A model generated the notes under the pieces. That model was not told the DNA's origin, ran no database searches, and saw nothing but the letters and a program-made list of their open reading frames with translations. The translations under genes were made by a program, and so were the position numbers. Positions 6,031-60,460 of a stretch of DNA of 64,000 bases are shown here, piece after piece (the stretch's first letter is position 1; each line of letters begins with the position of its first letter). The stretch spans positions 38,564,001 through 38,628,000 of the forward strand of contig OZ024745.1 in NCBI GenBank assembly GCA_964016885.1, in the 5' to 3' direction. Source of the DNA: Eledone cirrhosa (Eukaryota).

Positions 6031-6119
6031 TACTTATTGTTCCACAATGCTTCAAGCAAACTTCAATACTCTCTTATATATATATATATAGGTATGTAAT
6101 AAACAACATAAGGCAATTA

Positions 6120-6179
6120 TTTCATTTACCAGTAGTTTCTTAAAAGCAAAAGATTTTGCTTTCAATCCTTAGAATGAAA
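6120..6179 (-). ncRNA. Hammerhead motif, core mutated to CUAAGGA
   Basis: uuucauu CUAAGGA uugaaagcaaaa uc uuuugcuuuuaa GAAAC uacug GUA aaugaaa: 7-bp stem I, 12-bp stem II. Confidence 0.65.
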
Positions 6180-6321
6180 AAATCCTGGTCTGTTTATTGA
6201 ATTTGGATTTTAAAAACAAAAATGCAATCTGTATGAAAGTGAGGCTGGAGAAGGAAGAAGGAAAGGAAAAATAAAATAAAACTACACATGCAAACACACA
6301 CAAAAAAACACAAAAATATAG

Positions 6322-7094: not shown

Positions 7095-7384
7095 CATAAA
7101 TATAAACATACACACACACACATATATGTATTCATACACACATACATATACATACATTATACACATACAAATACGTACATATCATAAACACGCACAACCA
7201 AATACAAACACACACACACATACATACATACATATATATAGATATACATATATATACACACACACACACATACACACATACATGTGTGTGTAAAACTCAG
7301 TCTTAGATAATTCATATGAACCTTACATATACATATATATAGTAGTAAAGTAATAAAGTAATAAGCAACATAAGGCAATTATTC

Positions 7385-7438
7385 CATTCACCAGTGGCTC
7401 CTTAAAAGCAAAAAAATTTACCTTCAATCTTCAGAATG
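7385..7438 (-). ncRNA. Hammerhead motif, GAAAC mutated to GGAGC
   Basis: cauu CUGAAGA uugaagg..cuuuuaa GGAGC cacug GUG aaug. Its lesions complement those of the 6120 copy, so the consensus is canonical. Confidence 0.6.
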
Positions 7439-7523
7439 AAAAAAACCTGGTCTATCTACATATACATACATATACACACACAAATATATATATATATACA
7501 TATATATACACACATATATACAT

Positions 7524-10929: not shown

Positions 10930-11075
10930 GCATGTGTACATAGACACATACATACACATCAATATACACTTGTACAAAAATATACATACATGCAAAGAGA
11001 TAAGCGTGCTAATTGTAATTATGGCAAAATAGCTACTGGGTAAGAAAGGATAGAATAAATAGCTTCGATATAACA

Positions 11076-12527: not shown

Positions 12528-12840
12528 ATCGAACCAACACAACATAGCTTTAAATTAGGATACCTACTACCCACAGAAATATATTCATTAAGTATACTAT
12601 ATCCTTCACAAGTCTATACCACACAAATGTCTGTAAGTACCTCATCAACCCACAAACTTATTCCTTCTCAGCTGCTGCGATCATTTGATCCTAAATCCTA
12701 GTTTTTCTCAAATCACTACTACAATGTAACTTTACCTTCCTTTTGCCATAATTACAATTAGAACGCTTATCTCTTTGCATGTATGTATATTTTTGTACGA
12801 GTGTATATTGATGTGTATGTGTCTATGTACACATGCATGT

Positions 12841-12934
<94 letters not shown>

Positions 12935-13323
12935 GTGTGTGTGAATATATGCGTATATTACTTCGTTAACCTCTGTATTAGCTCAACAACTATTTAGCTT
13001 TGACAGTGCTGTCCCACTCATGTATGCTATTGAAGATGAAAAGAAAGACTGTAAACACTAGCTTATCTTTATAATTTAAAATTGATACACAATTCGATAA
13101 TCTGTACATGCCAAACTCTTACCTTTGCCTCATGACAGCTAGTTTTACACGCCGTAATGTTAGATACATTATACCCCCCACCTAAGTAATCCAGGGTCTC
13201 CTCAAATAATTTATTAATAGCATTGTTGTAATTGTTGTTATTGTTCTAATTGAATGCCATGACTACTTCATATAGTAGCCTGTATATTCTTTTCTTGCCT
13301 GTGTATTCTCTTCATTCTCGCAT

Positions 13324-13429
13324 GCTCCGAAGATCTGACTGGTTATAATTTTCTATTGGCGATCGAGTAACGTGAAAATAAGCGAATAGCGATCTCTAGA
13401 CCTACCAATTCTGAGAAACAATTGTCAGC
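13324..13429 (+). ncRNA. Hammerhead motif with CCGAAGA core and long stem II insert
   Basis: gcu CCGAAGA ucugacuggu..~60 nt..accaauucuga GAAAC aauu GUC agc, with palindromic ACAAUUGU. Confidence 0.65.
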
Positions 13430-14018
13430 TATGAGATTAAAAACCTTTTTTGTATAGCAAACCATGTGAACCTTCTTTCCTGATTTATTATTACTCCAAG
13501 TGTTTACAACATAGGAATTACGGCATACCCGCAGCATCACTATGAAAACGCCTTGTTGAGTCAAACCAAGCCAAGCGTTAATATCATCCACTACCTGGAA
13601 TACCATAACTGGACTATACCTAAGTGGACTGCATTTAACTATTATTTGTTACCCCGTATGTATATATATATATATGAAAACAGGGAGAAAGAGACGATTA
13701 GTAGGAAGAAAAATATATTTGTTTATAGACAATAAGCATATCGGTGTCATTGCTATCAAAGGAATGCGTTTCCCTAACAATATATATACTCTTCCCTTCA
13801 TTCTACACATCTCACACATCTTATACACACCACGCATCTCAACGTACACCCACTTACATCTCTCTCTCCACCACCGGACCTTGTTACCCGGAGATTTACC
13901 CATTTGCATTGTCGAGGCTTCCAAACGACTTAAAGATATATATATATATATATATATATATTGCTAGTAATGGTAAAAATTTGAAGCATCACCCTAAGTT
14001 GATTAATATGATATATAC

Positions 14019-16309: not shown

Positions 16310-16492
16310 TGGATTGGCAGTATCGGTAGAGTGTCGGCAGCCATGCTTTGCAAGAAAGAGTTACGGCCCTTTGTGGTCTGAGTTCCAATCCCGCTGATGA
16401 TAACTTTGCCTTTCATCCTCACAGGGTCTATAAAATAAAGTACCAGTAATACACTGTTTTAATTGCTTGCCTTGTGCCAAAAGTAGAAACTA
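16310..16492 (+). mobile_element. tRNA-derived SINE (octopod-like family)
   Basis: A-box-like tggcagtatcggtag, B-box-like gagttccaatccc, body actttgcctttcatcc..gataaaataaagtaccag..ccttgtgccaaaagtagaaac; many copies in the window. Confidence 0.85.
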
Positions 16493-16652
16493 TTACTTTT
16501 CAGTTCACATACAAAAAAATGAATATTTTATTTTAATACACTTTTGTTTTACTGTTCTCTATCATTGTATCAGAATTTTATTTCTTCCTCACCTGTTTCC
16601 TTGAATACTTAGAAGCACATGGGAAAATATAATTAGAGAATATATTTTCTGA

Positions 16653-16840
16653 TGGCGGTGGATTGGCAGTATCAGTAGAGCGTCGGACCCCATGCTTTGA
16701 AGCATAGAGTTACGTCCCTTTATGATCTGAGTTCAAATTCCGCCGAGGTTAACTTTGCCTTTCATCCTTACGAGGTCGATAAAATAAAGTACCAGCAATG
16801 TACTGGGTATTTGCTGGTCTTGTGCCTAAAAATAGAAACA
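16653..16840 (+). mobile_element. tRNA-derived SINE, same family
   Basis: ggcggtggattggcagtatc..gagttcaaattccgccgagg..aatagaaac. Confidence 0.88.
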
Positions 16841-19581
16841 CTTATTTTTTTCTGAAATCGATCGCTTTTGCTATGCGGCGTTTCACGGATATCGTTTGGT
16901 AAAGCACCTGGACATAACTTACACATGACGTAGGATATCTCGCAAATATTGTAGGCGTGGGTAGCATAATAGTTGGGAATGACACCTTTTATTAAAATTA
17001 TTTTTATCCAATGAATGAAGAAAACACAAAACACGACTTATAGGTTTTGCTATAAGGTTTTGGCCGTTGAATTACATATTAAATCTATTCGGCAAGTTCC
17101 AAAGTGTTCCCTCTAACCTTTTTCACTCGATAAAGTATGGTTGACAATAACCTGTTGTAAATGACGCATATAGTACTTGCCAGGAATGGAACCACTGACT
17201 TTATGATTGCGAATAGGTCAAATTCCGTCCATCTTACACCCTAAATAAAAATAGAAATGATCATGCATTTGAACATAAATCTGTTCGATAACAATTGTCC
17301 TGTTACAGAAAACAAAACAAAGAAAAACATTACATTTTTTTTCCTCATTTTAATCATACCAATCCGTATATCGCCACCTTTGACACAATCTCGTTCTTCA
17401 CACAACAAACTACACCGTACAATATATAGTGCTGGGCTCTGATGTATATATATAAAACAAGTAACTAATTTTAACAAGAGGTAGTATATTTCATTAGATA
17501 TTTTATCACTGATCTGAGAAATCAAATGTCTTAGTATCTAATATATCTCAACTCCCAAGATGTAATATAACAGTAGAAGGTTACTTTTTTCTTAATAAAG
17601 GTGATAAGGTTAAACAATAAAAATAACACTCTATCTATCTATCACTTTTTTCTTTTTTTCTCTTTCGTTCTCACTTTCCCTCGCTCTCTCTTTCTCTCTC
17701 TCTCTCTATATTTTTTGGCGGGGGGGGGATGTGTGTGTCTGTATATATGTATGTACATTTTGTTCGTATGTATTTCGTCGTTTTACAATCATATATTTGA
17801 AAAAAGTATAGAATTTAGATTTATACACGAACACTCTTAATATTTTTCTATTGGAGTATAAAGACTAAAGAGAATAAAGAACGAAAATAAATGAAAAAGG
17901 TAAGAGACAAATCAAAACTATGGGAGAAGGTGAAAAATAATTTCCTTTTACTATTGGTTATCTAATCTGGACGACAAATAAAAGATGAGTAATGATCAAC
18001 ACACACGCACAGATACCTTTTCATGCTGAGTTCAATTTGTTCCTTTAGTTAGATTTGCTTACAAACTTTTTTAAGAAATGCCAAGGTTGCAGCATTTTTC
18101 TTTCATTATTTCTTAGTAAAACAATAATATATTGTACAATGCCATGACAAAATTTGTGTTGGATTGTCCGCTGTGTAATAAAGTGTGTAGGTAATTGTCC
18201 GTCTACATTTTGCACAAAATCACAGTTCATCTGCTATAATATCGATAAACAAAATGATCACCAGAAAAGACAAAGTACTTTCGTAAATAACCCAGCTGGA
18301 AAGTTGTCACTCTCTTCCAAAAGTAAGCTGATACTCATAGAATCCCACCAGCCCTACTCCTATATGAACGTATATTTGTATAGATAAAGTTTCTTAATAT
18401 GCAGCTAGTCCCCACCACACACAACACGATAGGTTCTTTTTCTACAATCAAGTGATCTCATCAAGTAATATGCAATGACAATGATATGTTCAATTTTCAG
18501 GTAATACAAATGAACGTACAGTCAAGATGCTGACCCATGGCTCTTTCAACCAACGTTTCAATGATGATAAACTGTTCATAAACAATGCCTTGTATCAAGG
18601 AGTAAATCACCTTATTTTAATAAGCTTTTTATAGAACATGTTACACATAGCATCGGTAATATCTTCGACCATTTCTAGCATGAGAATGTCATAGCTACGC
18701 CGATCACCTATTGTCCAGATCCAGTTTTCATGTATGTGTTCAGTGATACCCTGTGCTTTTTACATCATCCTACCTTATTACGCTACTCACATTTCATAAT
18801 TTTGTTTTAATTCAATATTCAATTATGTATCAGACACTCTCACCTCTCTACATGCCTAAAATTTAAACATTTTCACAAACAATAGTATGGATAAAATATT
18901 AGGCAATACAATTGACAAGAAAAGATTCATCGCACACAGAGACGTTGAACAGGTGCACCATGTCTTCTACTTAATGTATGATCATGTGATGCTGTAACAC
19001 TACACATTTGTTTGTGAAGTTACATGGCTTAATGTTGGGTGTCTAGCTCGCGATCGTTAGGCTATAAGATCGATTTTATGCGATGTATTGAATTATTGTA
19101 CAAGAAAATGAATTTCTCCTTCTCTCAGTACAATCCAGTGCTGAAAAAAAAATGAGTTGCACCCCTAATTCAGATATCTAGAGTTGCACATACTGTGCCG
19201 TGTTGTGACATTGATACGACTCTTAAGAGTACACGGATCTGTGGATGTCTCAGACACGTACAACGTAATTTTATACGTAAGTTGTTCCGTTGATTAAGCA
19301 ATTAGAACACATATCGTCCAAATCGAAGGTGGTCCATTTCATTGTGGAATGAAAATCATAATCATATAGTTTACCATTTGTGAATTAAACGCAACGTTTC
19401 TCCTCCCTAATATGAGTTACTGCTAAAGAACGATTCTAAAAAACATTCTCCACAATCTATTCACTATAAGGCACTTTATATGTAGTATCCTACAACTGCA
19501 ACAATCTACACAAAATACTTTTAACAAATATAGTTTCCTCACATCAATATCCCTATGGGATTTCTTACCCCCCTCTCTCTC

Positions 19582-20034: not shown

Positions 20035-20329
20035 AATATATATATATATATGCTCAATTTAGGAAGTATTAGAATTGAAAAAATATATCCTGTTTTAACC
20101 CTTTTTTAATCCAACTTAACTCTACTATAAGTAACTTTCGAAAACAAAAAAATGCTGCAATACTAAAATCTATACACTATGGATTGCGTATGATTCATAC
20201 AATTCTTGCATCTTCCAAGAACTTGAAAAAATATTATCAAAAAAATAAGAAGGTTAATTTAATGGACATTAATAGACAGTGCATAAACATTGTTAAGCTA
20301 CTGAATAGAGAAATACATACTGTACTATT

Positions 20330-21100
20330 TGTTCCCAAACCGCTTAGTTATATAACAAAACAATTCATTCTTAACCAATCTATTAGATTAATATGGCCTT
20401 CCACATTAGATATAGGGAAAACTATTAAAAATATCCCCGGTAAAAATTGTACCTGCTGTAAGTCAGAAAATTACACTAAATTATGGGGAAATACTAATGC
20501 TGTTATAACATGGTTCATAACATTAGATAATAGAAAGTATATGAAGTTTTTACGTTTTGACATTGACAATTATTATACATCAATTTCCTCTAACCCGCTG
20601 AATAATACGCATTTAATGGCCTTGTACCACACTAACATTATTCGATATGAAATCGATATTGGTCACTAGATACACTATCATAGAATTTGCTAGTAGCCTG
20701 TACAAGAGGAAAAACTGTATATATAGCAACGGCATTAAAATGGAATCACGGGATTCCATCAAACGTCGCTGATCGTGGTTATTTCTCTTTAATAAAGGAA
20801 GTGAATTCCTTTGCATGGAAGCTGGCCTACATAGCGATGATGCGCCTTAAACGTTTAAAATTCTTTGTAATTCTGCGCTCGAGAGAGAACAGTAGGAAAA
20901 CACTTGTAAAAATTCATTAAACACTTTAACTTGTCTCTACCAATTGAATATAATATTAAAATAGGTATTTTCGTGGTTGCCAACCTGGATTCCAAAACTG
21001 ATATTTTTAGCGACAACACTAAACCCGAGACATCTCTAAATTATGTACAAAAGAATTTGAAATGCCTCAACAACCTATCGGGTAGATTATCTACGCTTTC
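20330..21100 (+). pseudogene. Decayed Naiad-type Penelope RT fragment
   Basis: IRLIWPSTLDIGK..LWGNTNAVITWF..KFLRFDIDNYYTSIS resembles the PLE RT motif WKNT..VI.WF..FDI..FYPSI; stops and frameshifts downstream. Confidence 0.65.
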
Positions 21101-21397: not shown

Positions 21398-21754
<357 letters not shown>

Positions 21755-21950
21755 CGTATATATATATTAGTATGTACACGTACATACAAATATGTATGTA
21801 TATATATATACATACACACATATATATATGCACGTATGGATTCACCGAACATTTATTATAATGCTCGGTGTGTTTGTAAACAAACATCAGGTATTAAGCC
21901 GTAGTGTCCAGCAACCATCGTTGCACGTTTGTTCAACACTGACAAAGGAA

Positions 21951-21991
21951 CGCTGTACTAGTTTCAAGCTTATTAGCTATCGTCAGCAACG
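21951..21991 (-). ncRNA. Intact minimal type-I hammerhead ribozyme
   Basis: cguug CUGACGA uagcu aaua agcuu GAAA cuag UA cagcg. Confidence 0.85.
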
Positions 21992-22380
21992 TATACCTTC
22001 CTGTCAGATTGTTGAACATCTGAAAGTATATACATTCCTTATGCATATTAACGGCTGAGTAGCCCAATTTGCATATCGATTGGGTTAATCGGCCGGGCGC
22101 ACCGAAAACGATAAACGGAAAAAATGAAACGAAATTTCATTTCCCACTATTAGTACGGCTGTTACTTAAATATAAGTATGTACACGTACATACCTATATG
22201 TATACAGACGTACAGTAGTACGTATATATATATACATACATACACATATATATATATATCTACGTATGGATTCACCGAACATTTTTTATAATGCTCGGTG
22301 TATTTGTAAACAAACATCCCTAATTAAGCCGTAGTGTCTAGCAACCATCGTTGCTCGTTTGTTCAACACTGACAAAGTAA

Positions 22381-22421
22381 GGCTGTACTAGTTTCAAGCT
22401 TATTAGCTATCGTCAGCAACG
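22381..22421 (-). ncRNA. Intact minimal type-I hammerhead ribozyme (tandem copy)
   Basis: Identical core, 430 bp from the 21951 copy. Confidence 0.83.
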
Positions 22422-23342
22422 TATACCTTCCTGCCAGATTGTTGAACGTCTGAAAGTATATACTTATGGGGCATGTATGTATGTATATATACATACTACT
22501 GTACGTCTGTATACATATATGTATGTACGTGTACATACTTATATTTAAGTAACAGCCGTACTAAGAGTGGGAAATGAAATTTCGTTTCATTTTTTCCCTT
22601 TATATATATATTCATATACATATATACATAATTATATAATATGTGTGAGTCCGTGCATTTCTGGTGATGTGCATCTGCATACACATAAACATAGTCTGTT
22701 CAAATTTACTCGGAATGAGATAAAAAATCTAATTTTGTGAACTCATTATGATAATAAACAATCAAAATATAGAAATTGGTTTTAGCTTCTTACATCGAAA
22801 AATAGGAAAAAGTCAGTTGCCATGAAATCTAAGAGGCTTGCCAGAGATTTTTTAATAAAATATGGCTTCCAAGTTTTTTTTTTCATGCAGATGCTTTATA
22901 TACACTCGATAGCAGAGGCTCTAACTCTGTTGAACACAACGAAATGGATAGGTAAATTGACGGATATGATAGTTGTTTCATAGCAAAAAATTAAAGATGT
23001 CTACTTTCTTTCGTATTTCTTCATTTCTTCTTTTACTGTTTTTCGCTCGTGTATAGTTCTGATTAAATTCCCTCTTCTCCAATCTACTTCTTCATGTTCC
23101 TGATTGTGGCTTCCTATAAACAGCTAGGTTATATATACCTCTATTCTCTCCCTTTCCCTATTCCTATTCAGTTCCTTCTATCATTCATCCCTATACCCTT
23201 ATCACTTCAGTCTTGGTTTTCTAAAGCACTCTATCCTTCTCAGAATAATTTCATTTTTTAACTTTTCTTTCATTCTTTCTATTCCTTCAGTAAACTTTAC
23301 ATAGATATTTCGATTTGATTTTTTATTATTATCTATCATTCA

Positions 23343-23799: not shown

Positions 23800-23907
23800 G
23801 TTATATAGTAAGGTGCATTATTGGTTGTGTAAAATTGTCCAATAACTTTATGTTAGCAATATTAAGTTCTCCACGCTTTTGTATACCTTCAATTCCATTC
23901 GAGGGAA

Positions 23908-24480
23908 CAGCTAGATGATGTAAAACGGAGTATAAGTATCAAAATGAAAATCCGAAGGCAAGGTACAATTCCAATCATTTAATCATTTAATTCAATAAGA
24001 GATAGATCGATTGTGAAGTCATAATCGATTATCACTGATTTCATCAGGTGAAAATGAATTGTCTTAAAATTCTTGATATGAGGGAGAAAAATAACGATGT
24101 TCTCTCACAGAATTCATTCCCTCATATGGAGACACACCAGTCATAAAAGTTTTCAGATTTCTATCGCTGCAGAAGACGCTGGACATCAATTAAATCTGTA
24201 GGGATACAGTCAGTCACAGTTAAATGTGAGTGGGTACACACACACTCCACACCAACATACATCGGCTCGGGGCCAAGGAAAAATATATAGAAATATATAC
24301 ACACATCAACACAGTATTAAACCCGTAGAATTAGCGTGGGTAGGTACACACACACTTTCACACACACCGAAGCGATGTCCGAGAAAAAACAAATATGAGA
24401 ATGTACCAACACAGCACTCACCGAAAGTTAGTTCACAAAGCAGCAGAAGGTATGTCTGTCAAATTGAGATTTGACCGACA
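23908..24480 (-). mobile_element. Solo pLTR-like repeat, homologous to the 41.4-43.5 kb arms; decayed hammerhead (CUGAUGA at 24041-24047)
   Basis: cagctagatgatgtaaaacggagtat...aaattgagatttgac shared with 41485-42075. Confidence 0.8.
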
Positions 24481-25262: not shown

Positions 25263-28200
25263 ATTATTATTATTATTATTATTATTATTGTTATTGTTAT
25301 TCCTTGAATCTCAGTCATTGATGTTGGTTAACTGGAAAGTCCGTTGGATTGAAAACAAGCCACTACCTGCAGCCTCAGATATTCAGGACGTATCGGATGG
25401 TTCTTGCTGTTCCAAGCAAGCATGCCTTTTGAAGCGTTCCAAAAAGCGTGAAGGGGCCGATTTTCTTTAACCATCCCTGGAAACCTTTGGAGATAGTCCC
25501 CAGTGCGCCTATGACAATCGGGATCACTTTGACTTCATGGCAGTTCCAGATCCTTTTCACCTCCCACTTTAGGTCCTGGTATCGGTTAATTTTCTCCCTC
25601 TCCGTCTCTTGCACTCTCGTGTCGAACGGGCAGGCCACATCCACAATCAGGCACGATCTTTTTTCTTTGTCCACAACCACCAGGTCAGGTCTATTGTGTT
25701 CCAGTTTTTTGTCCGTCTGTATCCTAAAATCCCACAGCACCTTCACCTGACTGTTCTCCATCACCGCCTCTGGCCTATGCTCATACTATTTCTCAGAATG
25801 TGGTAGATTGTTTACTTTGCACAGGTGCCAGTGGATCACCCTGCCCATCACATCGTGTCTCCAGCCCTTATAGTGGGTCTGGGCTAGGTGTTTACACTCG
25901 GACACAATGTGAGCCACAGTCTCCTCTCTCTCTCCACAGATCCTGCACAGTGGGCTAGCCTCCTCCTTGTAGATATGGTGCTTCAACCACTTCGTTTTGA
26001 GGGCCTGCTCCTGCGCAGCCATTAGCATTCCTTCTGTAGCCTTTTTGAGGTCTCCTCTTCTCAACCAGTTCCATGTCTGTGGATCTCTAAATTCAGTTTT
26101 CTCAAAGAAGGTACTATGAAGGGATTTTCCCTTAAGGCTGCTCTTCCTCCTTGATGTTATTTCCTCCTTGGACATCCCCTGGCCTACTGTCCCCTCCTTC
26201 AGTACAGTTCTGAGCATTGGCTCCTTACTATAGGTCACGTATTTGTATAGGTTGTTTTTCTCCATCTGAACACAGTCCTCTATGCTGATAAGACCTCTTC
26301 CACCCTCAGATCTCCTTAGGTAGAGTCTATCGACATCACTCCTCTTGTGGAACATGTTGTAGATAGTCAATAGCTTCCTAGTCTTCCTATCCATTTCTTT
26401 TTGTTCAGCAACATTCCATCTCAGAATTCCCGCACTGTACCTAATAATAGACACAGCTCGGGAATTTACTGCGCTTATGGCATTTCTGCTGTTCAGATGT
26501 GACTTCAATACGCTCCTTACTCTCCGAATGTATTCAGTTCTTAACAATTCCTTCATTTTTTTTGTTCTTTATGCCATCAGCCTCCAGAACGCCCAAATAC
26601 TTGTATCCTTCCTCAGAGTCAATTTCCTTTATCATCTCACCTGTTGGTATCTGGATCCCGTTACTTCTGCTCAACCTACCCCTCTTCATCACAATGACTC
26701 CACATTTACCAATACCAAACTGCATACATATATCACTGCTGAAAATACGGACAGTGTCAACAAGCACATCCAACTCCTTCTCACTTTTCCCGAAGAGCTT
26801 AAGATCGTCCATGAAGAGGAGGTGATTGATGGTAAGCTCTCCCCTTCCCAACTTGTATCCTGCTCTCACTTTTCGCAGCATAATGGTCAAGGGCATCAGG
26901 GCAAGGACAAACAACAGAGGGGACAGGCTATCTCCCTGGAAGATACCTCTGTTGATCTTCACGCTTCCCAAGGATACTCCAGTTGATGTCAACTCTGTCT
27001 CCCAGGACCCCATACTCCTGCCCAGCAACTGTCTGATGTTATCTGCCACCCTGAAGACCTCCAGGCTTTTGGTGATCCAGGAATGAGGCACCATGTCAAA
27101 TGCCTTTCTGTAGTCTATCCATCCCATGGCAAGATCAGTGTGTCTCCTCCTGCAATTCCCCATTACCATCTTATCAATAAGCAACTGATCCTTTGTACCA
27201 CGTGACTTCTTTCAGCATCCTTTCTGTTCGTCCGGTAACAAGTTGTTTGTGTGGAGGTGATGGTAGATTTCCTCAGACACAATGCTCGTCAACAGTTTCC
27301 ACATTACGGGCAGACATGTGATAGGTCTATAGTTGGTAACATCATTACCCTTGATTCGGTCTTTCATTATCAGAACTGTGGTACCTTTTGTCAACCACTC
27401 TGGCACCTCACCCGACACCAAGCAGTCATTGAACATGGCCGTCAGCTTCGGGTGGAGGGATGTTAAATGTTTAATCCAATACCCCTGCACACCATCTGGG
27501 CCTGGTGATTTCCAGTTGGTTAGTTTTTTGGCTTGCCCCTTAAGAGTTTCAACTGTGATACTCAAATCAGTCTGTTGTTGTGCCTTCTCACCGATCTCCC
27601 TCTGTACTGTCTCAATCCACCCTGCCTGGGCATTGTGTCTAACATCCTGCTCCCATATTCCTCTCCAGAATGTTTTAGCTTGTTCCGCCCCAGGGATCAA
27701 GTCGTTGCCTATTTCTTTCCCTTCAAGCTGTCCAAACAGCATCTTCTGGTTGTTGTCGAACATGCGGTTCTGTTTATACTGACTGACTCTGTTCTCGTAT
27801 CGCCTGATTTTGGCACTCTTTGCTACAATGCGTTGCTTCAATTCCTCTATTATAATATTTAGCTTTTTACTCCTAGTTTTGTATTTTATTTCCAGTCTAT
27901 TTTTAGTGCCTATGTTTTTTAGTGTCCCATTCAGTAGTGACTCAAGCTTTCCTATGTCATTTCTCATTTCCCCGATTTGCCCACTCAGTCGCTTCTTCCA
28001 CCACGGCTCTGCTCTTTCTTGTCTGTTGTTTCCTCTCGCTTTTATACCAAGTAGTTTCCTCACCGTATTTGCTGTTGCTTTGAGGATATTGTTGCACTGG
28101 TGGAGACTCCTCGCCTCAAGGTATGGGATGACTTTGTTTACCTTAGCTGTTGTTTCTTTTAACTTTTTCCTGTCTACAAATCTTAGGTTCATAGGTCTCC

Positions 28201-28950
28201 CACTATCATTGTTCAATTCATCTACCACTAGATTTAGGATGTCAACCGAATCTTGTCCTAGCCCGTCAGCATTCATCTCCTCAGTGGCCGTATCTCTGTT
28301 CCAGGTATTATTTATCTCAGTATTCAGATCATTGTCTGCTTCGGGTGGTTCCTCCGTTCTCAGGACCTCCTCACCTTCATTTCCCACCGGCTCGCCTGTC
28401 TGGCATACTACACCCGCCATCTCCAAGCCATTCTCTCTGCTCAGTTTCTCCAGTTCCAGCTCGCTTATCCACCCATTAGTTCTTATTACCCGAGCCTGCC
28501 CGGCCAATTTTTGTTCATCTAATTTAAATAAACCAATCTCGTTCCAGATGTTATGCATCCGTCTCCTGTAGCCCCTCTCCTTGGGGTTACTTTTCAGGTA
28601 GCATTGCATAACAGTTCTATTCAATTCTTTCGTCCAGTTGGTTCTGGCCCCTTTCCTTCTTCTTCTTCCATAACATCAGCAGTATTTGGTTGACAGTCAG
28701 GTTCCTGCTGCTGAGCCAGGGGGCACCTGTTGGGTGAGAGTCTGTCACATGACGTTCTAGTCTCCATTTCACCGTTATTCGAACTGTTTATGTTCGATAT
28801 TTAAACACTCTTATCGAGGATTGGCGAATGTATGTTTACATAGCCATCTGTGGATCCGCCATCCCACTTGGCCCTTGTGTGGCATTATCACCACGCTGTA
28901 TACGAACACACATAAACAAACAAACACACGGGCAGAAAGGGCCCCAAAAA
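25263..28950 (-). mobile_element. Near full-length R4/Dong-clade non-LTR retrotransposon with (AAT)n 3' tail
   Basis: Four consecutive minus-strand ORFs form one broken polyprotein; tail at 25263-25300; 5' boundary approximate. Confidence 0.93.
25375..28640 (-). pseudogene. R4/Dong ORF: RT, CCHC zinc knuckle and restriction-like endonuclease; three breaks
   Basis: [88 protein letters not shown]. Breaks near 27200, 26545 and 25775. Confidence 0.95.
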
Positions 28951-35574: not shown

Positions 35575-36432
35575 GTGTGTGTGTGTATGTGTGTGTGTTT
35601 ATGTGTGTGTGTATGTATGTATGTATAGTTACTAACCAGTGGAATGCATTAGAAGATTCTTACTATGGAACCAGTATTATATTACCTCTTCGTACTGTGT
35701 ATTTATATACGTCAGAGGCGAGGAATAATTTATTATTTGTATAAAACACCACACACAGCGGCAGCTGAAATCAACTCTTCGACTAAAGGAATTAATATTC
35801 ATTAATATATGGTTCTCATATTGTAAAAACTGAGGTATGAGCTTTGTATTGCTGAGTAGCAGTTTAGAACAAGGTGCGTTGCTGATTATCTCGTCTTTGG
35901 AAATATTTCCTCTTGTATGGCCAGATTTGTCTTTCACTCTTTAGACAGGTAATATCCATAAGAATGAATATGGCCTCTGTGACAAAGTTATCCTTGATTT
36001 GGAGACGTGAGCCGAATGCTTACAATAGAGTTAAACCAGGGGACAGATTAATCATACCAATCATATATTATACTATGAAATTTGAACTCCGAAGAACTTT
36101 TGAACACTACCAAACCACAACCGTGCAAGAATATTTTATTTTATCGACCCCAAAATGATGAACAGCTGTGTTGAGCTCGTCTGAATTTGAACTTAGGGAA
36201 CTGACAGATGGAAAATATGTCGCAATAAATTTTGTTCCTACGCTCTCATAATTCCTGACCAGATCTGGCCAATACACCAATATATAAGCAATTATGAACC
36301 CTCTCGATGTAGTTCTCAAACCATTAATATTTATTCAACATTATACATATATATATATTTATAAAGGAAGTAATTCCGTCGGAAAAGTCCAGGAAAAAAG
36401 AGTGCTCTATGTAAGCAACAGAGCTTAATTAT

Positions 36433-36552
36433 TATTATGTAATAAACAACATAAGGCAATTATTCCATTTACCAGTGGTTTCTTAAAAGCAAAACCTTTT
36501 GCTTTTAAGAAACCACTGGTACATGGAATAATTGCCTTATGTTGTTTATTAC

Positions 36553-36558
<6 letters not shown>
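36433..36558. repeat. Fold-back palindrome (62 bp arms, 2 nt loop) derived from the 6120/7385 hammerhead family
   Basis: ..ggtttcttaaaagcaaaa cc ttttgcttttaagaaaccactggta..; one mismatch; followed by (TA)n. Confidence 0.92.
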
Positions 36559-36676: not shown

Positions 36677-38830
36677 AGTGTGCGGGGGTGAGTGAGTGAG
36701 CGAAGTGTGTCTGTGTGTGTGTATGTGTATGTATGACTTGGAATCAATGGTATAGAGCACATTTACATTACTACCAAGCAATATATTTAATGTTTACAGA
36801 GATGTTAGTTTAGATTGTACACTGAAACCATCCTATTGCTATATAAATATGTTGTGTTTAAACATGTCTTGAGCTGTCACCTGATAAAATCCTACATGCT
36901 CCGTTTACGTCTATAGTAATATGAACATATGTGGAGCCAAGGCCGGTTTAAGCATGCATGTGATCCTTAGTAAAATTTCTTCATTGATCTTGTGTCATTA
37001 TCTAAGTTTGCAAAACCGAAATTTGCTTCCCTGTAAATATTATCTGTTGTTGGTTAAAATATGTCTTCCCCCAACTTCACTTCAATCAAATTTTACAGAA
37101 CCCATGCGTTCTCATGTATAATAATATACAGTAAATTTTATAACTGATATTTATATATATATATATATTATAATAAAGTTTGTGTAAGTAATTTGAACAG
37201 CTGGTATATCTAAACAATAGCTTCTTCAAACTATCAATGCATGGTAATTTTAGGATTCTTTCTAAATATTCCCAAATAGGGGTTTTAAATTATTTATTTT
37301 AATGACGAAATGTTCCAAACTATCTATATATAATGTATTTACATAAATCAACTAGAAAACATTACGTATTAAAATGGTAAGAAAACGTCTTGACATACGT
37401 TCACGTTTTAAATTTGAATAATGAAAGGTTAACATCCCATATAATTCTGTTTTCTAGATGTTAAAAGTAAAAACTTCTAAGCTATAACAATAAATATTGT
37501 ATGCATATATATGTATAAATTTATTTGTTCACGAGATCTAAAAAAAACATTGCATAACACGTTCTACGAACAAGAGATAAAACGAGATTTCTTTGTAATG
37601 AAAAATATTTCCAAAATGAAATATATATTTCAACTTCGTTGTTCGTCTAATATTTATCTATTACATTTACGCCTCTTTATTTCGTTAACAGACATTAAGG
37701 TTTTTTTAAGGTTTATATTCTTAAAGATTTAAAACTGATTTCATATAGGTATACGTTCAGAGTGTGTTCGCATCGGTGTTTGTCCAATGGTGAATACGAA
37801 CTTAATTCGTTTTTATGAAATTGTCAGGTTGTGAAGTTTATGGTATAAGAGAAAACGGTAATATATAGATAATTGTATATCATTGAAAGGTTAGATACAA
37901 TATGCATCCCCCCCCCCCACACACACACACACGCACACACTAACACACACACTCAAATATATATATATATATAATACACCATAGAAATTCTTGTCGCAAA
38001 ATTCCATCTGTTCTACTATGCTGAAAATACTACACTGTCATCTGGCATATGAATTAATCTTTCAGGATGTATGTTACTAATTTTTAAAATATATTAATAC
38101 CAGCTTATATAATGTTGCTGCAAAATCAGAATTATAATAAAGAAGATCGAGTTCAATTTATGTATTTTTAATAATCGTATACTTACATCTTACGAATCGG
38201 GAGTGCATGTTACTGGAATGTCACGAATAGCACGACGCATATTTCTTTCGCTCGCCCATTATTCCACTCTCCCCTCTATTCAATATTATGCTTTTGTTTG
38301 TGACTTGCCAACTCAAAACAGCGCTTTTATATTTCGTACTATGGTATGTGTAGTTAATTTAAAATGTTTGGTGGTTTCAATATATAACCCATCACCTGAA
38401 GGCAAACAACCATACCAATTGTGTGTCAGTTTTTATTTTTAGACTAACAATATTCATTCATTCCTCCATCACCACCACCACCATCATCATCATCAACTTC
38501 TTTTTCTGATGATCGTTTACTGAAGATGCCGCATTATTTCACATAAATTCTTACATATAAATCACCGTCCAACACATTTGTAAACGGCGTCACTATCCAT
38601 ATGAAGATTACACTGTGCAGACATTCTCGAGAGGACGAAAGATTCAGTCTGCGTTATTGACACGTAAGGCTTTATTAGAATATCATGGAACGTTTGCAGA
38701 TTTTATTAAATATTAATAAGGTGTTTAATTAAAAGTGAAGTCCTGAAACATGTATAAATTAATTGTTTCTACTTTTGGCACAAAGCCAGCAATTATCCCA
38801 GTGTATTAATGCTACTTTATTTTATCGATC

Positions 38831-39015
38831 CATATAAAACAAGTAACATTCAAAGACCAACCAGATGTGAGAAAAACCACATACCATACATCTCAAATCT
38901 ACTTGTGAAAAGCAGAAGAATTGTGAAACACCGGTAAAGGAACCAAATAAATATATATATTTTTATTAAAAATAAGACTCCAGTTGCATTTTCGATTTCA
39001 TCTTTTTTACTTATG

Positions 39016-39054
<39 letters not shown>

Positions 39055-39089
39055 CTTTACAGATATTTCACATATTTTAGCTCAATCAG
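38831..39089 (+). mobile_element. Short hammerhead family element between 89 bp direct repeats of a SINE tail
   Basis: Flanks 38743-38831 and 39091-39179 are direct repeats; decayed motif at 38902-38940. Confidence 0.8.
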
Positions 39090-39108
39090 TCTGAAAGATG
39101 TATAAATT

Positions 39109-39240
39109 AATTGTTTCTGCTTTTGGCACAAAGCCAGCAATTATCCCAGTGTATTGCTGGTACTTTATTTTATCGATCCCGTAAGAATGAAGGGAAAAGT
39201 TAATCTCAGCGGGATTTGAACCTTACACTGTGGGAGCTGG
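39109..39240 (-). mobile_element. SINE copy (minus strand)
   Basis: gtttctgcttttggcacaaagccagc..ctggtactttattttatcga..gggatttgaac. Confidence 0.8.
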
Positions 39241-39287
39241 CCGATTACAAATATTCTCGAAAACATAAACAAGAGATAGACATCATT

Positions 39288-39470
39288 ATGGATTGGCAGT
39301 GCCGGTAGAGGGTAGGACGCCATGCTTTGACGCATAGAGTTACGGCCCTTGCCATTCTGAGTTCAAATCCTGCCGAGGTTAACTTTGCCATTCAACCTTA
39401 CAGGGTCGATAAAATAAAGTACCAGTAATGTACTGGTTAATTGCTGGCCTTGTGCCAAAAGTAGAAACAA
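39288..39470 (+). mobile_element. SINE copy
   Basis: tggattggcagtgccggtag..gagttcaaatcctgccgagg..aagtagaaac. Confidence 0.88.
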
Positions 39471-39611
39471 TTATATATATATATGTATACACTCATGCAT
39501 TCGTACCTACGTACATACCTACGTACATACCTACGTACATACCTATATATTTATCTATATACATACATGCATATGTTCGTACATACATTCATACATGGAT
39601 ACATACATATA

Positions 39612-40813: not shown

Positions 40814-41424
40814 ATACGTAAGTGACTGGATGTGACTATTGGTCTTTAGAGAATCAACAATCTAAATGAATTCAAAGATGTAAAATAAATATTAATTTGC
40901 AGTCAAGTAATTTGTACGCTTCAAATTTAGAAAATTAATTTTCTGCCACGCTTAATTTTCATCAATTACATTGCTGACTTAACCTCTTGATTAATATTTT
41001 ACAACTTCCACTTGTGGAATTTATATGTAACTTCTGTAATTCTTAGACCTGAATTTCCTTATAAACAAAACTTCTACGGAGTAAATATGTCGTTTATGAA
41101 TACTTTGTACTTTACTTCACATAGCACCATCCTCTCAGCTAAATAAATTATTTGAACCATTTGATTCCAGTTCCTCGGCGGACTAACAACACACCCAGAA
41201 GCTAGACATATCCATGCATTGACAAAGTGAAACACACTTCAACAACATGTGTACACCGAAACATATATAGCAGTAAATTTATAATATTTAATATACGAAA
41301 CCAAATTTTACATTTTTGACTTACTTATTTTATTTTACATTACTTCGGAGTAAACAAACCAACCTTCGTACTTCGTCGAGTACTCCAATCTGCATACTGA
41401 GGTTTCCGTAAACAACCAACATAT

Positions 41425-43505
41425 ACTCAAAATAAATAAAATATATGTATATATAATATATGTATATATATATACACATACACACAGCTAGATGATGTAA
41501 AACGGAGTATTTGTATCAAAATAAAGATCCGAAGGCATGGTATATATTTCCAATCAGTTTAATCACGACACATATTTCAATAAAAGATAGATCGATCGTG
41601 TAGCCATGATCGATTATCACTGAGAATGAATTGTTTTGAAATCCTTAATATGCGGGTGAACATTAACGGTGTTCCCTCAGATTGTAGTCCCTCATATGAA
41701 GATCAAGCAGTCAAAACACGGCGACTGCTATCGTCCTCAGTTAGGGTCATAAAACTATCAAGTCTCTATCTCCCAATAGCTGTAAAAGACGCTGGATATC
41801 AATCAAATCTGTAGAATTACAGTCGGTCACAGTTGGTACACACACACTCAAACACTAACGACACCAGGTCAAAGAAAAAAATATATATAGATATACCTAC
41901 ATAGCATCACATATGTAGAACTACAGACGGTCACAGTTAGTGTGAGTGAGTACACACACACTCACAGACACCGACACGAGGTTAAAGAAAAAATATAAAT
42001 ATACCAACAAAGTATTCACCGAAAGTTAGTTTACAAAACATCAAATGTTATATTGGTAAAATTGAGATTTGACGATATAAATTCGAAAAATTGGGTCAAC
42101 CGCAACTCTATACACACTCATGTATTTTCAGTTCAATGTTCTGCTATACGTGTATAGATTTAATTGTAACATCCGTATCTTCCTAAAAAGTGTATGTTTA
42201 GGTATATACACATCCATGTGAAGAGCAAGTAGTCAGCTCATATCGAACTCAGTATGTGCCGTTGTCCCATTGAGAATCTGAGTACCCAAATCTGTGCGTG
42301 CAAGCAACCTCTATGTAGGCCACCAAGGGGCTCTGTGTAGGGCTGGGTATTTGGGTTAAGGTGTCAGTATGTGCGATTTCCCGTCATGTGGGCCCTTGGG
42401 CTTTTAAGATAGGTGTTTGAGTGGTGGAAGTATGTTATCCAACACAATAGGCAAAATAAAATAACAAAGAATAGCAAAACCCCAGAGAATGTGTGTAGGC
42501 CCATTAATGGTGTGTAAGTATTATTGTCAAATCTGTAACCGTGAGCACTCCATGGTTAGATGATCACGGATCAAAACCTAGTGTAGTGTTCAATCGATAG
42601 GAACGTGACCAGTAATATCTGTGGGACCTCAGTGTCTAAAGAAACCGGGTACTGTGTGTAGAATTATGTTTAGAGAGCGTAATTAGTCTTAACTGAGTGT
42701 GTAATACGTCTAGCTATATCCTAACCGAGAGAACTCAATGGTTAGGGTATCTTAAAGTAATGGTGAATGCGCGTAATCGGTCTTACCTGAGTGTGTAATC
42801 ATTCTAACTATTTACTAACTAGGTATTCTAATGTGCACTCAGCTGTGAGAAATCTGTGGAAACAGGCCGAGTACCGTTTGTATATATTTTTATATATTTT
42901 CTTTCTTTTCTCGTGTCGGTGTGTGTGAGTGTGTGTGCACTCACTCACACTAACTGTGACCATCTGTAGTTCTACAGATTTGATGCTATGTTGGTATATG
43001 TATACATATTTTTTTTCTTGAACCTCGACCTCGCGTCGTGTGTGTGTGTGTATGTGTGTGTACCCACCCACATTAACTGTGACCGACTGTAATTCTACAG
43101 ATTTGATTGATGTCCAGCGTCTTTTACAGCTATTGGGAGATAGAGACTTGATAGTTTTATGACCCTAACTGAGGACGATAGCAGTCGGCGTGTTTTGACT
43201 GCTTGATCTTCATATTCGGGACTAAACTTTGTGAGTGAAGACTGTTAATTTTCTCCCTCTTATCAAGGATTTGAAGACAATTCATTTCCACCTGACGAGG
43301 TCAGTGATAATCGATCATGGCTACACGATCGATTTATATTTTATTGAAACATGTGTAGTGATTAAACTGATTGGAAATTTATACCATGCCTTCGGATCTT
43401 TATTTTGATACAAATACTCCGTTTTACATCATCTAGCTGTGTGTCTCTCTCTCTATATATACATATATTATATATACATATATTTTATATATTTTGTGTA
43501 TATGT
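41425..43505 (+). mobile_element. ORF-less Penelope-type element with ~600 bp inverted arms (41425-42010 / 42875-43505)
   Basis: Long inverted repeat; the right arm has a hammerhead, while the left arm has its core deleted. Confidence 0.85.
43289..43360 (+). ncRNA. Type-I hammerhead motif with extended stem II
   Basis: cac CUGACGA ..aucgaucaug gcua cacgaucgau.. GAAAC augu GUA gug; base of stem II imperfect. Confidence 0.68.
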
Positions 43506-46660: not shown

Positions 46661-46742
<82 letters not shown>

Positions 46743-46818
46743 ATAAATTTGAAGACTAAACTCCAAAGAGGGCTCGATAAGGATAAATATATATCAAATA
46801 TATAAGAACCGTAGTCAA

Positions 46819-46880
46819 ATATTTATTAAAATAACAGATTAAAGTTTGCTTAAACTTTAATCTGTTATTTTAATAAATAT
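46819..46880. repeat. Perfect hairpin, 29 bp arms with a GCTT loop
   Basis: atatttattaaaataacagattaaagttt gctt aaactttaatctgttattttaataaatat, running into (TA)n. Confidence 0.92.
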
Positions 46881-46898
46881 ATATATATATATATATAT

Positions 46899-47092
46899 AA
46901 CGAAGGAAATGTGGTAAGGAACCAGGTGGACCATAACGCACCAAAGTCCTCAATACTTAGGGTAGTAGAGTGGGTAATAGGAACAAATAAGACCCCGACG
47001 GCTGAGCTCAAGCCGTTTCGACGGCAAATTCTGTACAGAATTAGCCGTCGAAACGGCTTGAGCTCTGCCGTCGGCGTCTTATTTGTTCCTAT
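46899..47092 (-). mobile_element. pLTR 3' fragment ending in a fold-back palindrome (46977-47092) on a half hammerhead
   Basis: Centre aattctgtacagaatt; both arms read GAAA cggc..gccg UC; (TA)n on both sides; homologous to 21398-21591. Confidence 0.85.
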
Positions 47093-47178
47093 ATATATAT
47101 ATATATATATATAAAAGACGTAAAATAAGAAAATTTTAAAAAAATTTTAAAAGATTAACTTACTTACTAAAATTTTCA

Positions 47179-47257
47179 CTCCAACTAATTACTTACTGCA
47201 ATGGGATAAATACAGTTACGTAATAAACTGTTGAGAATTCATTGCATCATCAGGGAG
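47179..47257 (-). ncRNA. Hammerhead copy in the inverted arm, GAAAC mutated to GUAAG
   Basis: cucc CUGAUGA ugcaaug..cauugca GUAAG uaauua GUU ggag. Confidence 0.65.
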
Positions 47258-47627
47258 GTCTATTCTCAGCTAAGTCTCCGGGCAATGCGCGGACACTGGG
47301 TACTCATATAAAAATAATAATAATTCAGTAAATGGAACAGCTAGCGGGAACTGGATTCCATGTACTGAAAATCTCGCTGTCACTGGTCAAATGGCAGATT
47401 CTAAAGAATCAATCACGTGACACTGAGGCTAGTCGGTAGGAGTGGGATGGTAAGATGACAGAAGCCTACTAACACACCAACAAATTAGTAGTGGTTTTGG
47501 CAGGTTTGCTCGACAAATAAGTGATTTGGAGATAAATATAGAGAATTTAGTATATCTACTAACATATATATTTTTATATGAGTCCCCAGTGTCCGCGCAT
47601 TGCCTGGAGACTTAGCTGAGAATAGAC

Positions 47628-47706
47628 CTCCCTGATGACGCAATGAATTCTGAACAGTTTATTACGTAACTGTCTTTATCCCATTGCAGAAACTAATTAG
47701 TTGGAG
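47628..47706 (+). ncRNA. Type-I hammerhead ribozyme with extended stem II
   Basis: cucc CUGAUGA cgcaaug..36 nt..cauugca GAAAC uaauua GUU ggag; palindromic AACUAAUUAGUU. Confidence 0.85.
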
Positions 47707-48172
47707 TGAACATTTTAGTAAGTAAGTTAATCTTTTAAAATTTTTTTTAAATGTTCTTATTTTACGTCTTTTATATTATTGTTCTGCATCCTCCTGCATT
47801 GAACCACCTAGGTACTATTACATAACCTGTGTATTTGCTGGCATTAGCGTACATCTGTTCGCATATGTTAGTAGATATACTAAATTCTCTATATTTATCT
47901 CCAAATCACTTATTTGTCGAGCAAACCTGCCAAAACCACTACTAATTGTCTGTTGTGTTAGTAGGCTTCTGTCATCTTACCATCCCACTCCTACCGACTA
48001 GCCTCAGTGTCACGTGATTGATTCTTTAGAATCTGCCATTTGACCAGTGACAGCGAGATTTTCAGTATATGGAATCCAGTCCCCGCTAGCTGTTCCATTT
48101 ACTGAATTATTATTATTTTTATATGAGTCCCCAGTGTCCGCGCATTTCCTGGAGACTTAGCTGAGAATAGAC

Positions 48173-48251
48173 CTCCCTGATGACGCAATGAATTCTCAAC
48201 AGTTTATTTCGTAACTGTCTTTATCCCATTGCAGAAACTAATTAGTTGGAG
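48173..48251 (+). ncRNA. Type-I hammerhead ribozyme (tandem copy)
   Basis: Same motif 545 bp downstream. Confidence 0.85.
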
Positions 48252-48428
48252 TGAAAATTTTAGAAAGTAAGTTAATCTTTTAAAATTTTTTTTATATTTT
48301 CTTATTTTACGTCTTTTATATTATTGTTCTGCATCCTCCTGCATTGAACCACCTAGGTACTATGACATAACCTGTGTATTTGCTGGCATTAGCGTACATC
48401 TGTACGCATATGTTAGTAGATATACTAA

Positions 48429-48473
<45 letters not shown>

Positions 48474-49034: not shown

Positions 49035-49928
49035 AATGTACATCAGTTGCATGTATGATACATATTTTAAGCGCCGGTTGGAAATGTATCATTCTTTAAT
49101 ATGGAAATGTTCATCTGTCTGCCGCATGGTAATATGTATGAGTGAACCACTCATAACTCTCTGATCTCTAATTTGTATTCCTTGCAGAGATTTATTTAAA
49201 GATACTTTCAATACATTCCAGCTCTTACAAGAATAATCTACTCTCATTTCTTTATGTATTCAGGTTAAATATGGAATTATTTCAAAGCCATATGTTTCAA
49301 AGCATGTTAACATATTACTTATATATCGTATGGACCTCATAATTCATATTTTTGTATGTTTCAGCATGCTTCTGTGCAATAGTTAATCATCCTGCTATTT
49401 CAATCTCAGAAATGTTACTGCATTTTCGTTAAACCTTTTCGGTAATACGAAATTGTTGAAGCATAAAACCTCTCACTTCCTGGTACCCGTCTAATACAAA
49501 AGAGAATTGCGCTTTCAACAATGGTTAGTCAGGGCTTTGTTCCAGCATCTATCAGTCACACTGATTCAGCATACATGCTATATATATATATATATATAGT
49601 TTGTGTGTGTTATTATGTGTTTGATGTGAGGTAGAAACATCATGTTATGTCACAGAAACATCAACACTTTTATAATCATTACAAATGTGTTCTATGTTTT
49701 TATAACTATATACATCATTCACAAAGTGATTAATTTCATAATTTCGATAATTCTGCTAGATCCTCTTTTCTCCTATATATTGTTAATTTGCCCTAATGAT
49801 ACTGATGCTTCACACAGTCTGAAGATGTTACACTACATTTCTATTTAACTTTATCTATTATCTAGTTCATGTGGATCGTTAAATATTCTCATAACCAGAA
49901 GAAAATAACGTTATTTAAATTCCTGGTC

Positions 49929-50092
49929 GGTGGATTGGCAGTATCGGTAGAGGGTCGGACGCCATGCTTTCCAGCATAGTTACGTCCCTTTACAATCTGA
50001 GTTGACTTTGCCTTTCATCCTTACGGGGTTGATAAAATAAAGTACCAGAAATGCACTGGGTAATTGCTGGCCTTGTGCCTAAAGTAGAAACA
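49929..50092 (+). mobile_element. SINE copy with internal deletion
   Basis: ggtggattggcagtatcggtag..gataaaataaagtaccag..aagtagaaac. Confidence 0.85.
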
Positions 50093-50664
50093 GTTATTTA
50101 AATTCCTGGTCAAGATATAATTCAACAACGTTTTATATTCTCCCGACAGGAGCACATTAACTAAAGCAACTAGATTTATTTGAAGTCATTGAACCAATTC
50201 ACAATCAGAAACTATCGCTGAGAAATATTTGCCAGCTCTTGAAAGTTTTCATAGTCGACTGTATTGCCTTAATATATTTCCTAAATCAAATTCAGAGAAA
50301 CGTCAATATTCTTTTTCCCAGAGGCTAACATATATGAGTTTCACAATCATCCATTCTATTAAGATTTACTTAGCAAAAAATAACGACAAAAGAAAGAAAC
50401 AAAATAACCCTAAATATTAAATCTAATATCAAGTGATATTTATGAAAAAAAAATAATTCCCTCTCCTTTCCTCACATTCTCTCTCTGTCTCTCTTTCTCT
50501 CTCTCTCTGTCACTGTCTCTTACATTTTCCAAATATGATACTATTTAATGTTTCGTAATTTTTATGATTTGTTACATAACACTTAATAGAATGGATGTGC
50601 GTGTGTTTGTGCGAGTCTGTGTTTCGATTGAGTGTGTTGGTGTGCGTGTATGAATATTTAAATA

Positions 50665-53110: not shown

Positions 53111-53285
53111 GTATACGATGCTAGCGATATCTAATAAGCTTGAAACTTGTACATCGTTCCTGTGTCAGTGTTGAACAAAAAGTTGACGTGGTTGCCTAAA
53201 CACTGTACGGCGTAATTTGGTGTTTTTGTTTGTTTACAAACAAACCGAGAATTATAATAAATGTTCGGTAAACCGATACGTGCAT
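53111..53285 (+). mobile_element. Diverged copy of the 430 bp hammerhead unit; motif at 53116-53156 with mutated core
   Basis: Reverse complement of ~21828-21996; cgaug CUAGCGA..GAAA cuug UA caucg. Confidence 0.75.
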
Positions 53286-60267: not shown

Positions 60268-60460
60268 TACCAGTAATTTTGGGGGAAGGGAAAGTCGATT
60301 GAACGACCCCAGTACATTACTGGTGCTTTATTTTATCGACCATGTAAGGGTGAAAGGCAAAGTTAACCTCGGCGTGATGTGAACTCAGAGCGTAAAGGTC
60401 CGTAACTCTATGCAGTACATCATGGTGTCCTATTCTCTACCCATACTACCAATCCACCGC
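60268..60460 (-). mobile_element. SINE copy (minus strand)
   Basis: ttttatcgacc..tgaaaggcaaagttaacctcggcg..tgaactcag..ccaatccaccgc. Confidence 0.85.

Follow-up and report, generated by a model that had tools for sequence, protein, structure and literature searches.

Does the fold-back repeat at 46899..47092 of this stretch of Eledone cirrhosa DNA descend from one inverted ancestor, or was it formed anew when it was inserted? A second, homologous fold-back lies at 21399..21591 of the same 64,000-nt stretch (the window), and we refer to the two insertions as B and A, respectively. We read both as head-to-head pairs of 5'-truncated 3' ends set in (TA)n, probably from a Penelope-like element and probably each produced by one insertion with two primings, and we give this reading a probability of roughly 0.55.

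Insertion B consists of two 5'-truncated copies of one repeat's 3' end, placed head to head in a (TA)n target that flanks it at 46880..46898 and 47093..47113. Its left arm (46977..47034, sense on the minus strand) belongs to the copy with the long end and continues into an unpaired extension, or tail, of 78 nt (46899..46976, minus strand) that spans the distance from the long 3' end at 46899 to the short 3' end at 46977; its right arm (47035..47092, plus strand) is the inverted copy and stops at the short 3' end. Insertion A, preceded by (TA)n and followed by (CT)n(TA)n, has the same anatomy: an unpaired extension of 80 nt (21399..21478, minus strand) with 7 differences from that of B in 80 nt, a left arm (21479..21534, minus strand) in which the triplet GAC replaces GUC, and a more decayed right arm (21536..21591, plus strand) that differs from the left at 9 positions in 55 nt. 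When either locus is compared by BLAST with the masked window, its sole match is the other, at 84.8% identity over 191 nt. On the minus strand the shared unit runs through the inverted copy, the axis, GAAA-CGGC-loop-GCCG-UC, 97 nt and (TA)n.

The initial annotation described homologous palindromes at 46977-47092 and 21479-21591, and this holds: 55 of 58 positions are paired in B (3 mismatches, axis 47034/47035) and 47 of 56 in A (9 mismatches, axis on base 21535), with folding z-scores of -15.9 and -8.4 and no equally stable sequence among 200 shuffles of either. The palindrome is not the whole homologous unit, however, because homology between the loci begins at 46899 and 21399; the unit is thus about 193 bp long and includes the 78 and 80 unpaired nt to the left. 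Nor is the axis quite the same, as had been supposed, since the two lie half a base apart, B being without a loop and A having one unpaired base. The end points, also described as identical, are 2 nt apart, and these 2 nt are ambiguous with the flanking microsatellite.

Both loci show a (TA)n target like that of the Neptune, Hydra and Naiad clades, a 5'-truncated copy adjoined head to head by an inverted 5'-truncated copy, and a one-sided 3' tail arising from two 3' ends (78 nt in B, 80 nt in A). Any target-site duplication is unreadable inside the microsatellites, (TA)n to the left of A and (CT)n to its right. A MITE or fold-back DNA transposon would have terminal inverted repeats in all copies; because 78-80 nt lie outside one arm and unfolded or asymmetric copies are common, this family does not fit that description. 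Non-LTR retrozymes are defined, in the accessible part of their description, as tandem repeats that each carry a complete type I hammerhead (10.64898/2026.07.22.740005), and A and B are inverted, not tandem, and have no hammerhead core. Exact-pattern scans for the family gave 0 matches in metagenome contigs, viral contigs and prokaryote genomes, as expected for an animal repeat. No open reading frame is linked to the family, which matches only A and B in the window; a 44-codon open sense frame in both copies was considered as the start of one and rejected, with a stop directly upstream in unfolded copies and no ATG. Loci A and B are dead, ordinary insertions.

The arms of these insertions resemble one another by locus and not by side. 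As initially noted, diagnostic bases are shared within each locus (atagtatgac/gtcatacttt versus caaataagac/gtcttatttg), and among 55 aligned arm positions the informative sites number four for grouping by locus, none for left with left and none for crosswise grouping. The arm tree that had been suggested as a check, built from the four arms of the two loci, also pairs them by locus (16 parsimony steps versus 20; bootstrap 98; 6.6 log units better), and an AU test leaves the left-with-left grouping at p=0.077. Left and right arms differ at 3 sites in B and at 9/55 in A, and arms of different loci at 8-11/55; because the arms of A differ from each other as much as from those of B, A is a weaker witness than B for pairing by locus.

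Rare alleles point the same way. B carries adenine at 46987 and the mirror change at 47082, where depth in the public run X1 reads G in 1,582,088 of 1,592,541 (99.3%), so that both of its arms hold one rare allele. Both arms of A carry minority alleles at 46990 (10%) and 46984 (6.5%) that mark a different subfamily and also form a class of loose ends in 54 X1 contigs. With a rare allele in the arms of one and minority alleles in the arms of the other, the fold-backs come from different templates. Because arms group by locus and locus-specific alleles recur in both arms, it is likely that A and B formed separately, each anew during its own insertion, which agrees with the independent formation first proposed; with four arms and an AU p of 0.077, the arms may instead have been homogenised later.

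We surveyed the family in four of 11 public runs (X1, X9, X5 and X6) by matching to the locus at 80% likeness. Matches were found in 16,582 of 16,285,364 contigs of X1, 23,099 of 12,467,656 reads of X9, 42 of 8,254,286 records of X5 and 3 of 36,057,305 of X6; the window itself may derive from X1. The family is therefore high in copy number and variable, and we infer thousands of copies in the genome, a figure that is not a count. Two 3' ends recur across it: (TA)n stands directly before 46977 in 74 X1 contigs, 2,896 X9 reads and 3 X5 contigs, and near 46899-46910 in 90 X1 contigs and 1,262 X9 reads. The end point common to A and B is thus the family-wide short 3' end, which upholds that part of the earlier description, and the extension is the tail between the two ends. 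Unfolded copies, with native letters before 47036, occur in 144 X1 contigs, 888 X9 reads, 2 X5 contigs and 1 X6 contig; the upstream letters of those in X5 and X6 agree over 20 letters and then diverge. A second subfamily (855 X9 reads, consensus agreement 0.74) has the letters of the main sequence at 20 of 30 upstream positions, compared ungapped and by eye. A set of 6,668 X9 molecules ending at 47030, considered as true ends, coincides with an AATT site, presumably that of the enzyme used for this RAD library; we took these ends for a restriction-site artefact and left X9 depth out of estimates of folded-copy frequency.

The unfolded copies show what stood at the axis before inversion. They read CTAATT, an 8-nt loop (TAGTCCAG) and AATTAG, followed by CCGTC and GAAA, so that a native 6-bp hairpin ends 5 nt before GAAA. 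The 8-nt symmetric centre of B (47031..47038) lies in the register of this loop, and an ungapped comparison of the native continuation with B gives 8 matches in 11 positions, which places the axis of B on the axis of the native hairpin; A is one base longer at its axis, so the registers of A and B differ. The loops of A and B are part sense and part antisense. In the second subfamily, 5 of 6 hairpin pairs are kept, one through a double change and one as G-U. Because unfolded copies read other letters beyond the axis, the 14-15-bp "stem II" is mostly a product of the inversion, and the view that the arms begin with stem II has to be narrowed to the 6-bp hairpin, the only native part.

Next to this hairpin lies what resembles the 3' half of a hammerhead ribozyme. 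In the left arm of B (46997..47019, minus strand), the putative half comprises GAAA, a palindromic stem/loop III and a GUC triplet whose last base is 46997, at a distance of 97 nt from the long 3' end; in the right arm (47050..47072, plus strand), it comprises GAAA, CGGC, a 9-nt loop, GCCG and UC. GAAA, a helix III closed by A-U and an NUH triplet are all present, with GUC in three of four arms and GAC in one, so the reading GAAA-cggc-loop-gccg-UC assigned to every arm fits three of them and the left arm of A has GCCG-AC. CUGAnGA is absent at both loci, as had been observed. The unfolded parents that were expected to carry it do exist as unfolded copies, but neither CUGAnGA nor a 5' partner of CCGUC is found in the 30 upstream letters visible in them (four runs, loose-end rows listed). 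An upstream CTAAAAA was considered as a decayed CUGAnGA and set aside: it departs from the core at 2 of 7 letters, the fit is poorer in the second subfamily and GAAA would be preceded by five additional letters. Rfam returned 0 hammerhead families among 134 matches at E<=1, a weak test in that the complete motifs of the window are equally unmatched; its microRNA matches, driven by microsatellites and hairpins, fall below the gathering score and were discarded. The tail and half-hammerhead fold no better than shuffles (z -1.2 to +0.4). As they stand, A and B would not self-cleave, half of the core being missing. With no CUGAnGA in 30 visible letters and no linked reading frame, the family is assigned to the hammerhead-bearing Penelope-like elements provisionally.

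We then considered the junctions of other inverted copies, in X1 contigs with joint sides of 22-28 letters at 80% likeness. Among the best-supported 15 of 65 joints, 13 have an antisense piece whose end lies at 46938-46984, linked to a sense piece that starts at 47034-47050, namely at 47036 in 10 and at 47034, 47042 or 47050 in the others; the remaining two, opposite-strand rows at 46983, were left out of the count. The second piece in the 13 joints holds sequence that is missing from the first, and the letters between the pieces are native upstream loop letters (TC, GTC, AGTC or TTAGTC), so these joints are neither copies of a first cDNA by snap-back nor deletions of a palindrome of the A/B type. 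All 13 first pieces end at the short end or no more than 7 nt past it (chance 0.0006 if uniform), which is what a second primer at that place would produce. Of the 12 junction rows listed (of 61), the nine whose in-between letters are purely native have microhomologies of 1, 1, 4, 3, 2, 4, 3, 0 and 3 nt; the mean of 2.3 nt compares with 0.65 for random junctions (P=7e-5 against a two-sided null; 0.001 with the 3 dropped rows taken as zero).

Raw reads back three of the 13 joints (55 reads from 2 starts, 3 reads and 1 read). The hot spot at 47036 may be overstated, because junctions lying more than about 8 letters upstream of it would be lost in contigs assembled from 31-letter words. Some of the junction depths (37-384, compared with 7-22 for long X1 records) suggest several copies, and some junctions may therefore be inherited and not recurrent. 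A fixed RNA 5' end, made by cleavage after the GUC of the loop, was also considered and rejected, given that two more native letters are present in most of the junction depth. Together, the hot spot and the signal of twin priming form a modest, testable lead.

Two primings are preferred to a snap-back or an inherited hairpin because asymmetric junctions with microhomology join a second copy whose sequence is absent from the first. Under this reading, an endonuclease would nick both strands of (TA)n, and one strand would prime reverse transcription at the long end of an RNA, the other at the short end of that RNA or of a sibling. Copying would tend to stop in the loop of the native 6-bp hairpin just upstream of the hammerhead-like GAAA, and the two cDNAs would be joined by 0-4 nt of microhomology and then filled in. 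A first cDNA that stopped early would give an asymmetric inversion; two cDNAs that both reached the loop would give a palindrome of the A/B type, its arms identical at birth, with the same axis and the same end point.

Other fold-backs in the window have a comparable layout. A scan of the masked window found six palindromes, and five of them, from four unrelated families, follow the order microsatellite, unpaired extension, palindrome, microsatellite, with extensions of 71, 77, 78 and 80 nt and of about 80 nt for 46741-46876 (by eye; the scripted value of 28 halted at an internal AT run). In a comparator of another family (36359..36555), the palindrome (36436-36555) has its centre in the loop of an 11-bp hammerhead stem II that is native to the family, and its unpaired extension measures 77 nt. 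Two unfolded parents of this family lie on the minus strand, at 6096..6191 (core CTAAGGA, stem II and GAAA; ending where the inverted arm of the comparator ends) and at 7358..7453 (core CTGAAGA), and both end at or near the end of that inverted arm. For the comparator family, the position of the axis in the loop of hammerhead stem II is settled. Relaxed type I hammerhead motifs occur seven times elsewhere in the window.

Several further elements are present. Between 46660 and 48460, three unrelated head-to-head insertions stand side by side in one (TA)n tract: the fold-back 46741-46876, which has no GAAA half, B itself, and a hammerhead-bearing element at 47114-48432. The last is built of a 545-nt unit as one inverted copy and 1.6 direct copies, the direct copy running 116 nt beyond the inverted one; of its three CTGATGA motifs, two score as complete type I hammerheads, in which loop II measures 35 nt. 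The fold-back at 2259-2460 has a 71-nt extension and an axis just 5' of CTGAGGA; its core is kept in both arms and it is not centred on stem II. A Penelope-like ORF fragment at 10321-13920 (502 aa, with an Asn-rich linker and a GIY-YIG-like end) lies between inverted repeats of 680 nt, the direct side being about 430 nt longer; its reading frame, 11019-12527, which has inverted flanks, has no Pfam match, is placed at 0.94-0.98 against eukaryotic clusters, in two of seven rows of which 12-26% of members carry GIY-YIG, and resembles the Hydra-1_Obim rows by eye. A Penelope-like RT fragment at 3465-4988 (4026-4859, RVT_1 E=6.7e-8) has a minus-strand CTGATGA at 3742 and a (TA)n run at 3579-3672 that is flanked by inverted arms of 26 nt. 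Inverted or tandem repeat pairs with hammerhead-type cores (CTGATGA, CTGACGA, CTGAGGA) occur at 8227-10290, 21828-22463 and 41419-43505; third copies lie at 53111-53285 for the 21828 family and at 23907-24475 for the 41419 family. A repeat of about 190 nt with a tRNA-like head, which we take to resemble octopus SINEs, is present in at least 7 copies in 16307-16849, 38743-39471, 49928-50099 and 60308-60460. Two broken non-LTR retrotransposons with RT fragments lie at 167-1476 and 25375-28675 on the minus strand (RVT_1 E=3e-17 at 26534-27211), and a decayed RT-like frame at 20079-20669 (minus strand) lies 730 nt downstream of A, on the sense strand of A.

Comparison with described Penelope-like elements, through the accessible portions of the papers concerned, reveals close relatives of this anatomy. 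The endonuclease-bearing (EN+) elements have an adjoining inverted 5'-truncated copy, a one-sided tail of 30-40 bp and (TA)n targets, the last listed for Octopus Naiad and Hydra families, and the origin of the inverted structures is named there as an open task (Craig et al., 2021; PMC8557442). A and B share with them the head-to-head inverted truncated copy, the extension at one end and the (TA)n target, but their tails are about twice as long (78-80 nt), both copies are cut at the same point to give a gap-free palindrome, there is no linked ORF, and no exact motif match to families in the supplement, as far as available, was found. The Penelope elements of Adineta vaga have head-to-head junction palindromes, an inverted copy shorter than the direct one and microhomology at 5' junctions, as here (Arkhipova et al., 2013; PMC3846280). 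The present family differs in its asymmetric junctions, which point to two primings, and in being represented by stubs of only about 190 bp; the part of that paper available makes no mention of hammerheads.

The Poseidon element PAc of Anolis offers a biochemical parallel: both strands are extended in vitro, two RT start sites define the tail, and uncleaved RNA serves as template (Frangieh et al., 2024; PMC11167929). Two start sites defining a tail and an AT-rich target are shared with our family, and the hammerhead cut of PAc falls 85-92 nt before the start region, compared with 97 nt from putative cut to 3' end here. The hammerhead of PAc has been tested and its ORF begins at stem II, whereas our family shows neither a start codon nor a conserved ORF; inverted products of PAc are not discussed in the accessible text. 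Penelope type I hammerheads have a palindromic helix III, and some motifs form opposite-strand pairs separated by 100-700 bp (Cervera and De la Pena, 2014; PMC4209133). GAAA, a palindromic helix/loop III and an NUH triplet are common to these and our family; in the sequence visible here, no CUGAnGA, complete helix II or 5' strand of helix I was found, and helix III is longer than in minimal hammerheads. The literature search, thin in its coverage of subscription papers, returned no paper that connects stem II with the junction or Penelope elements with twin priming.

Twin priming is familiar from L1, where the second priming site is variable. In the account reportedly given by Ostertag and Kazazian in 2001, a second, internal priming leaves an inverted 5' part joined by microhomology. 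In our family, by contrast, the second site is a fixed, family-wide end, and the products A and B duplicate the inverted part.

It is possible, though unlikely, that a single priming sufficed: the cDNA of a Penelope-like element would fold back at the native hairpin and prime its own second strand as far as the short end. Self-priming on an antisense template is how palindromes at inverted Penelope junctions were read in Adineta (PMC3846280, in the portion available), the axes of B and the comparator are in register with native hairpins, and arms grouped by locus would follow. A pure snap-back should, however, keep the native antisense loop, from which B, being symmetric, differs at 3 of 8 positions. 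Moreover, the 13 asymmetric junctions, with a second piece that the first lacks, cannot come from self-priming, which on its own also gives no reason for other copies to end at the short end.

We consider it quite unlikely that a single master fold-back, or a few of them, multiplied as whole units, by retroposition or in the manner of a MITE, their arms being homogenised later by template switching or gene conversion. X1 does hold further fold-backs in the exact register of B that are about 12% different from it (record 8, with 16 differences, satisfies the 31-letter rule for bridging the axis, which records 6 and 7 narrowly miss with 27-29 letters on their short side), and junction depths above those of single records and the AU result would also suit such inheritance. 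Against it stand the abundance of unfolded copies in X1 and X9, the 78-80 nt that keep the inverted repeat from being terminal, the different registers of A and B, the minority-subfamily alleles in the arms of A and the rare allele in those of B, and the same one-sided anatomy in four unrelated families of the window. That the repeat is not a Penelope-like element at all, its inverted duplications being errors of replication or repair at (TA)n and its hammerhead likeness due to chance, seems improbable: the lack of CUGAnGA (in A, B and 30 upstream letters), of a linked ORF and of an Rfam hammerhead match would fit, as would four motifs without exact match in the accessible Naiad/Chlamys/Hydra supplement, but two fixed 3' ends, 5' ends that vary and a head-to-head polarity are features of the retroelement type, complete hammerhead motifs occur in neighbouring families of the same anatomy, and the stem/loop III is palindromic as described for Penelope hammerheads (PMC4209133, in the part available). 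A fold-back artefact of sequencing or assembly is scarcely credible, for although none of the listed contigs covers the whole stretch of A or B, the arms show 3 differences in B and 9 in A, axis and end are common to both loci, and the axis is crossed by independent short-read contigs.

The idea that a reproducible mechanism, and not a single accident, lies behind these loci is supported as regards separate formation, but the mechanism is the inverted insertion already described for Penelope-like elements and is not new; published accounts of these elements already cover inverted copies truncated at the 5' end, palindromes at the junction, one-sided tails and (TA)n targets. The value of the family lies in its junction statistics, only glimpsed here, rather than in loci A and B: high-copy short stubs, two fixed 3' ends and thousands of junctions make good natural data for distinguishing twin priming from self-priming. 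A more specific proposal, which we regard as doubtful for now, is that Penelope-type inversions arise by twin priming from two fixed start sites, with the hairpin at or beside hammerhead stem II as the preferred site at which copying stops and ends are joined. If this were true, the hammerhead region would owe its retention in part to a cis-acting role as an integration signal, and the persistence of weakly cleaving hammerhead motifs in these elements would be easier to explain.
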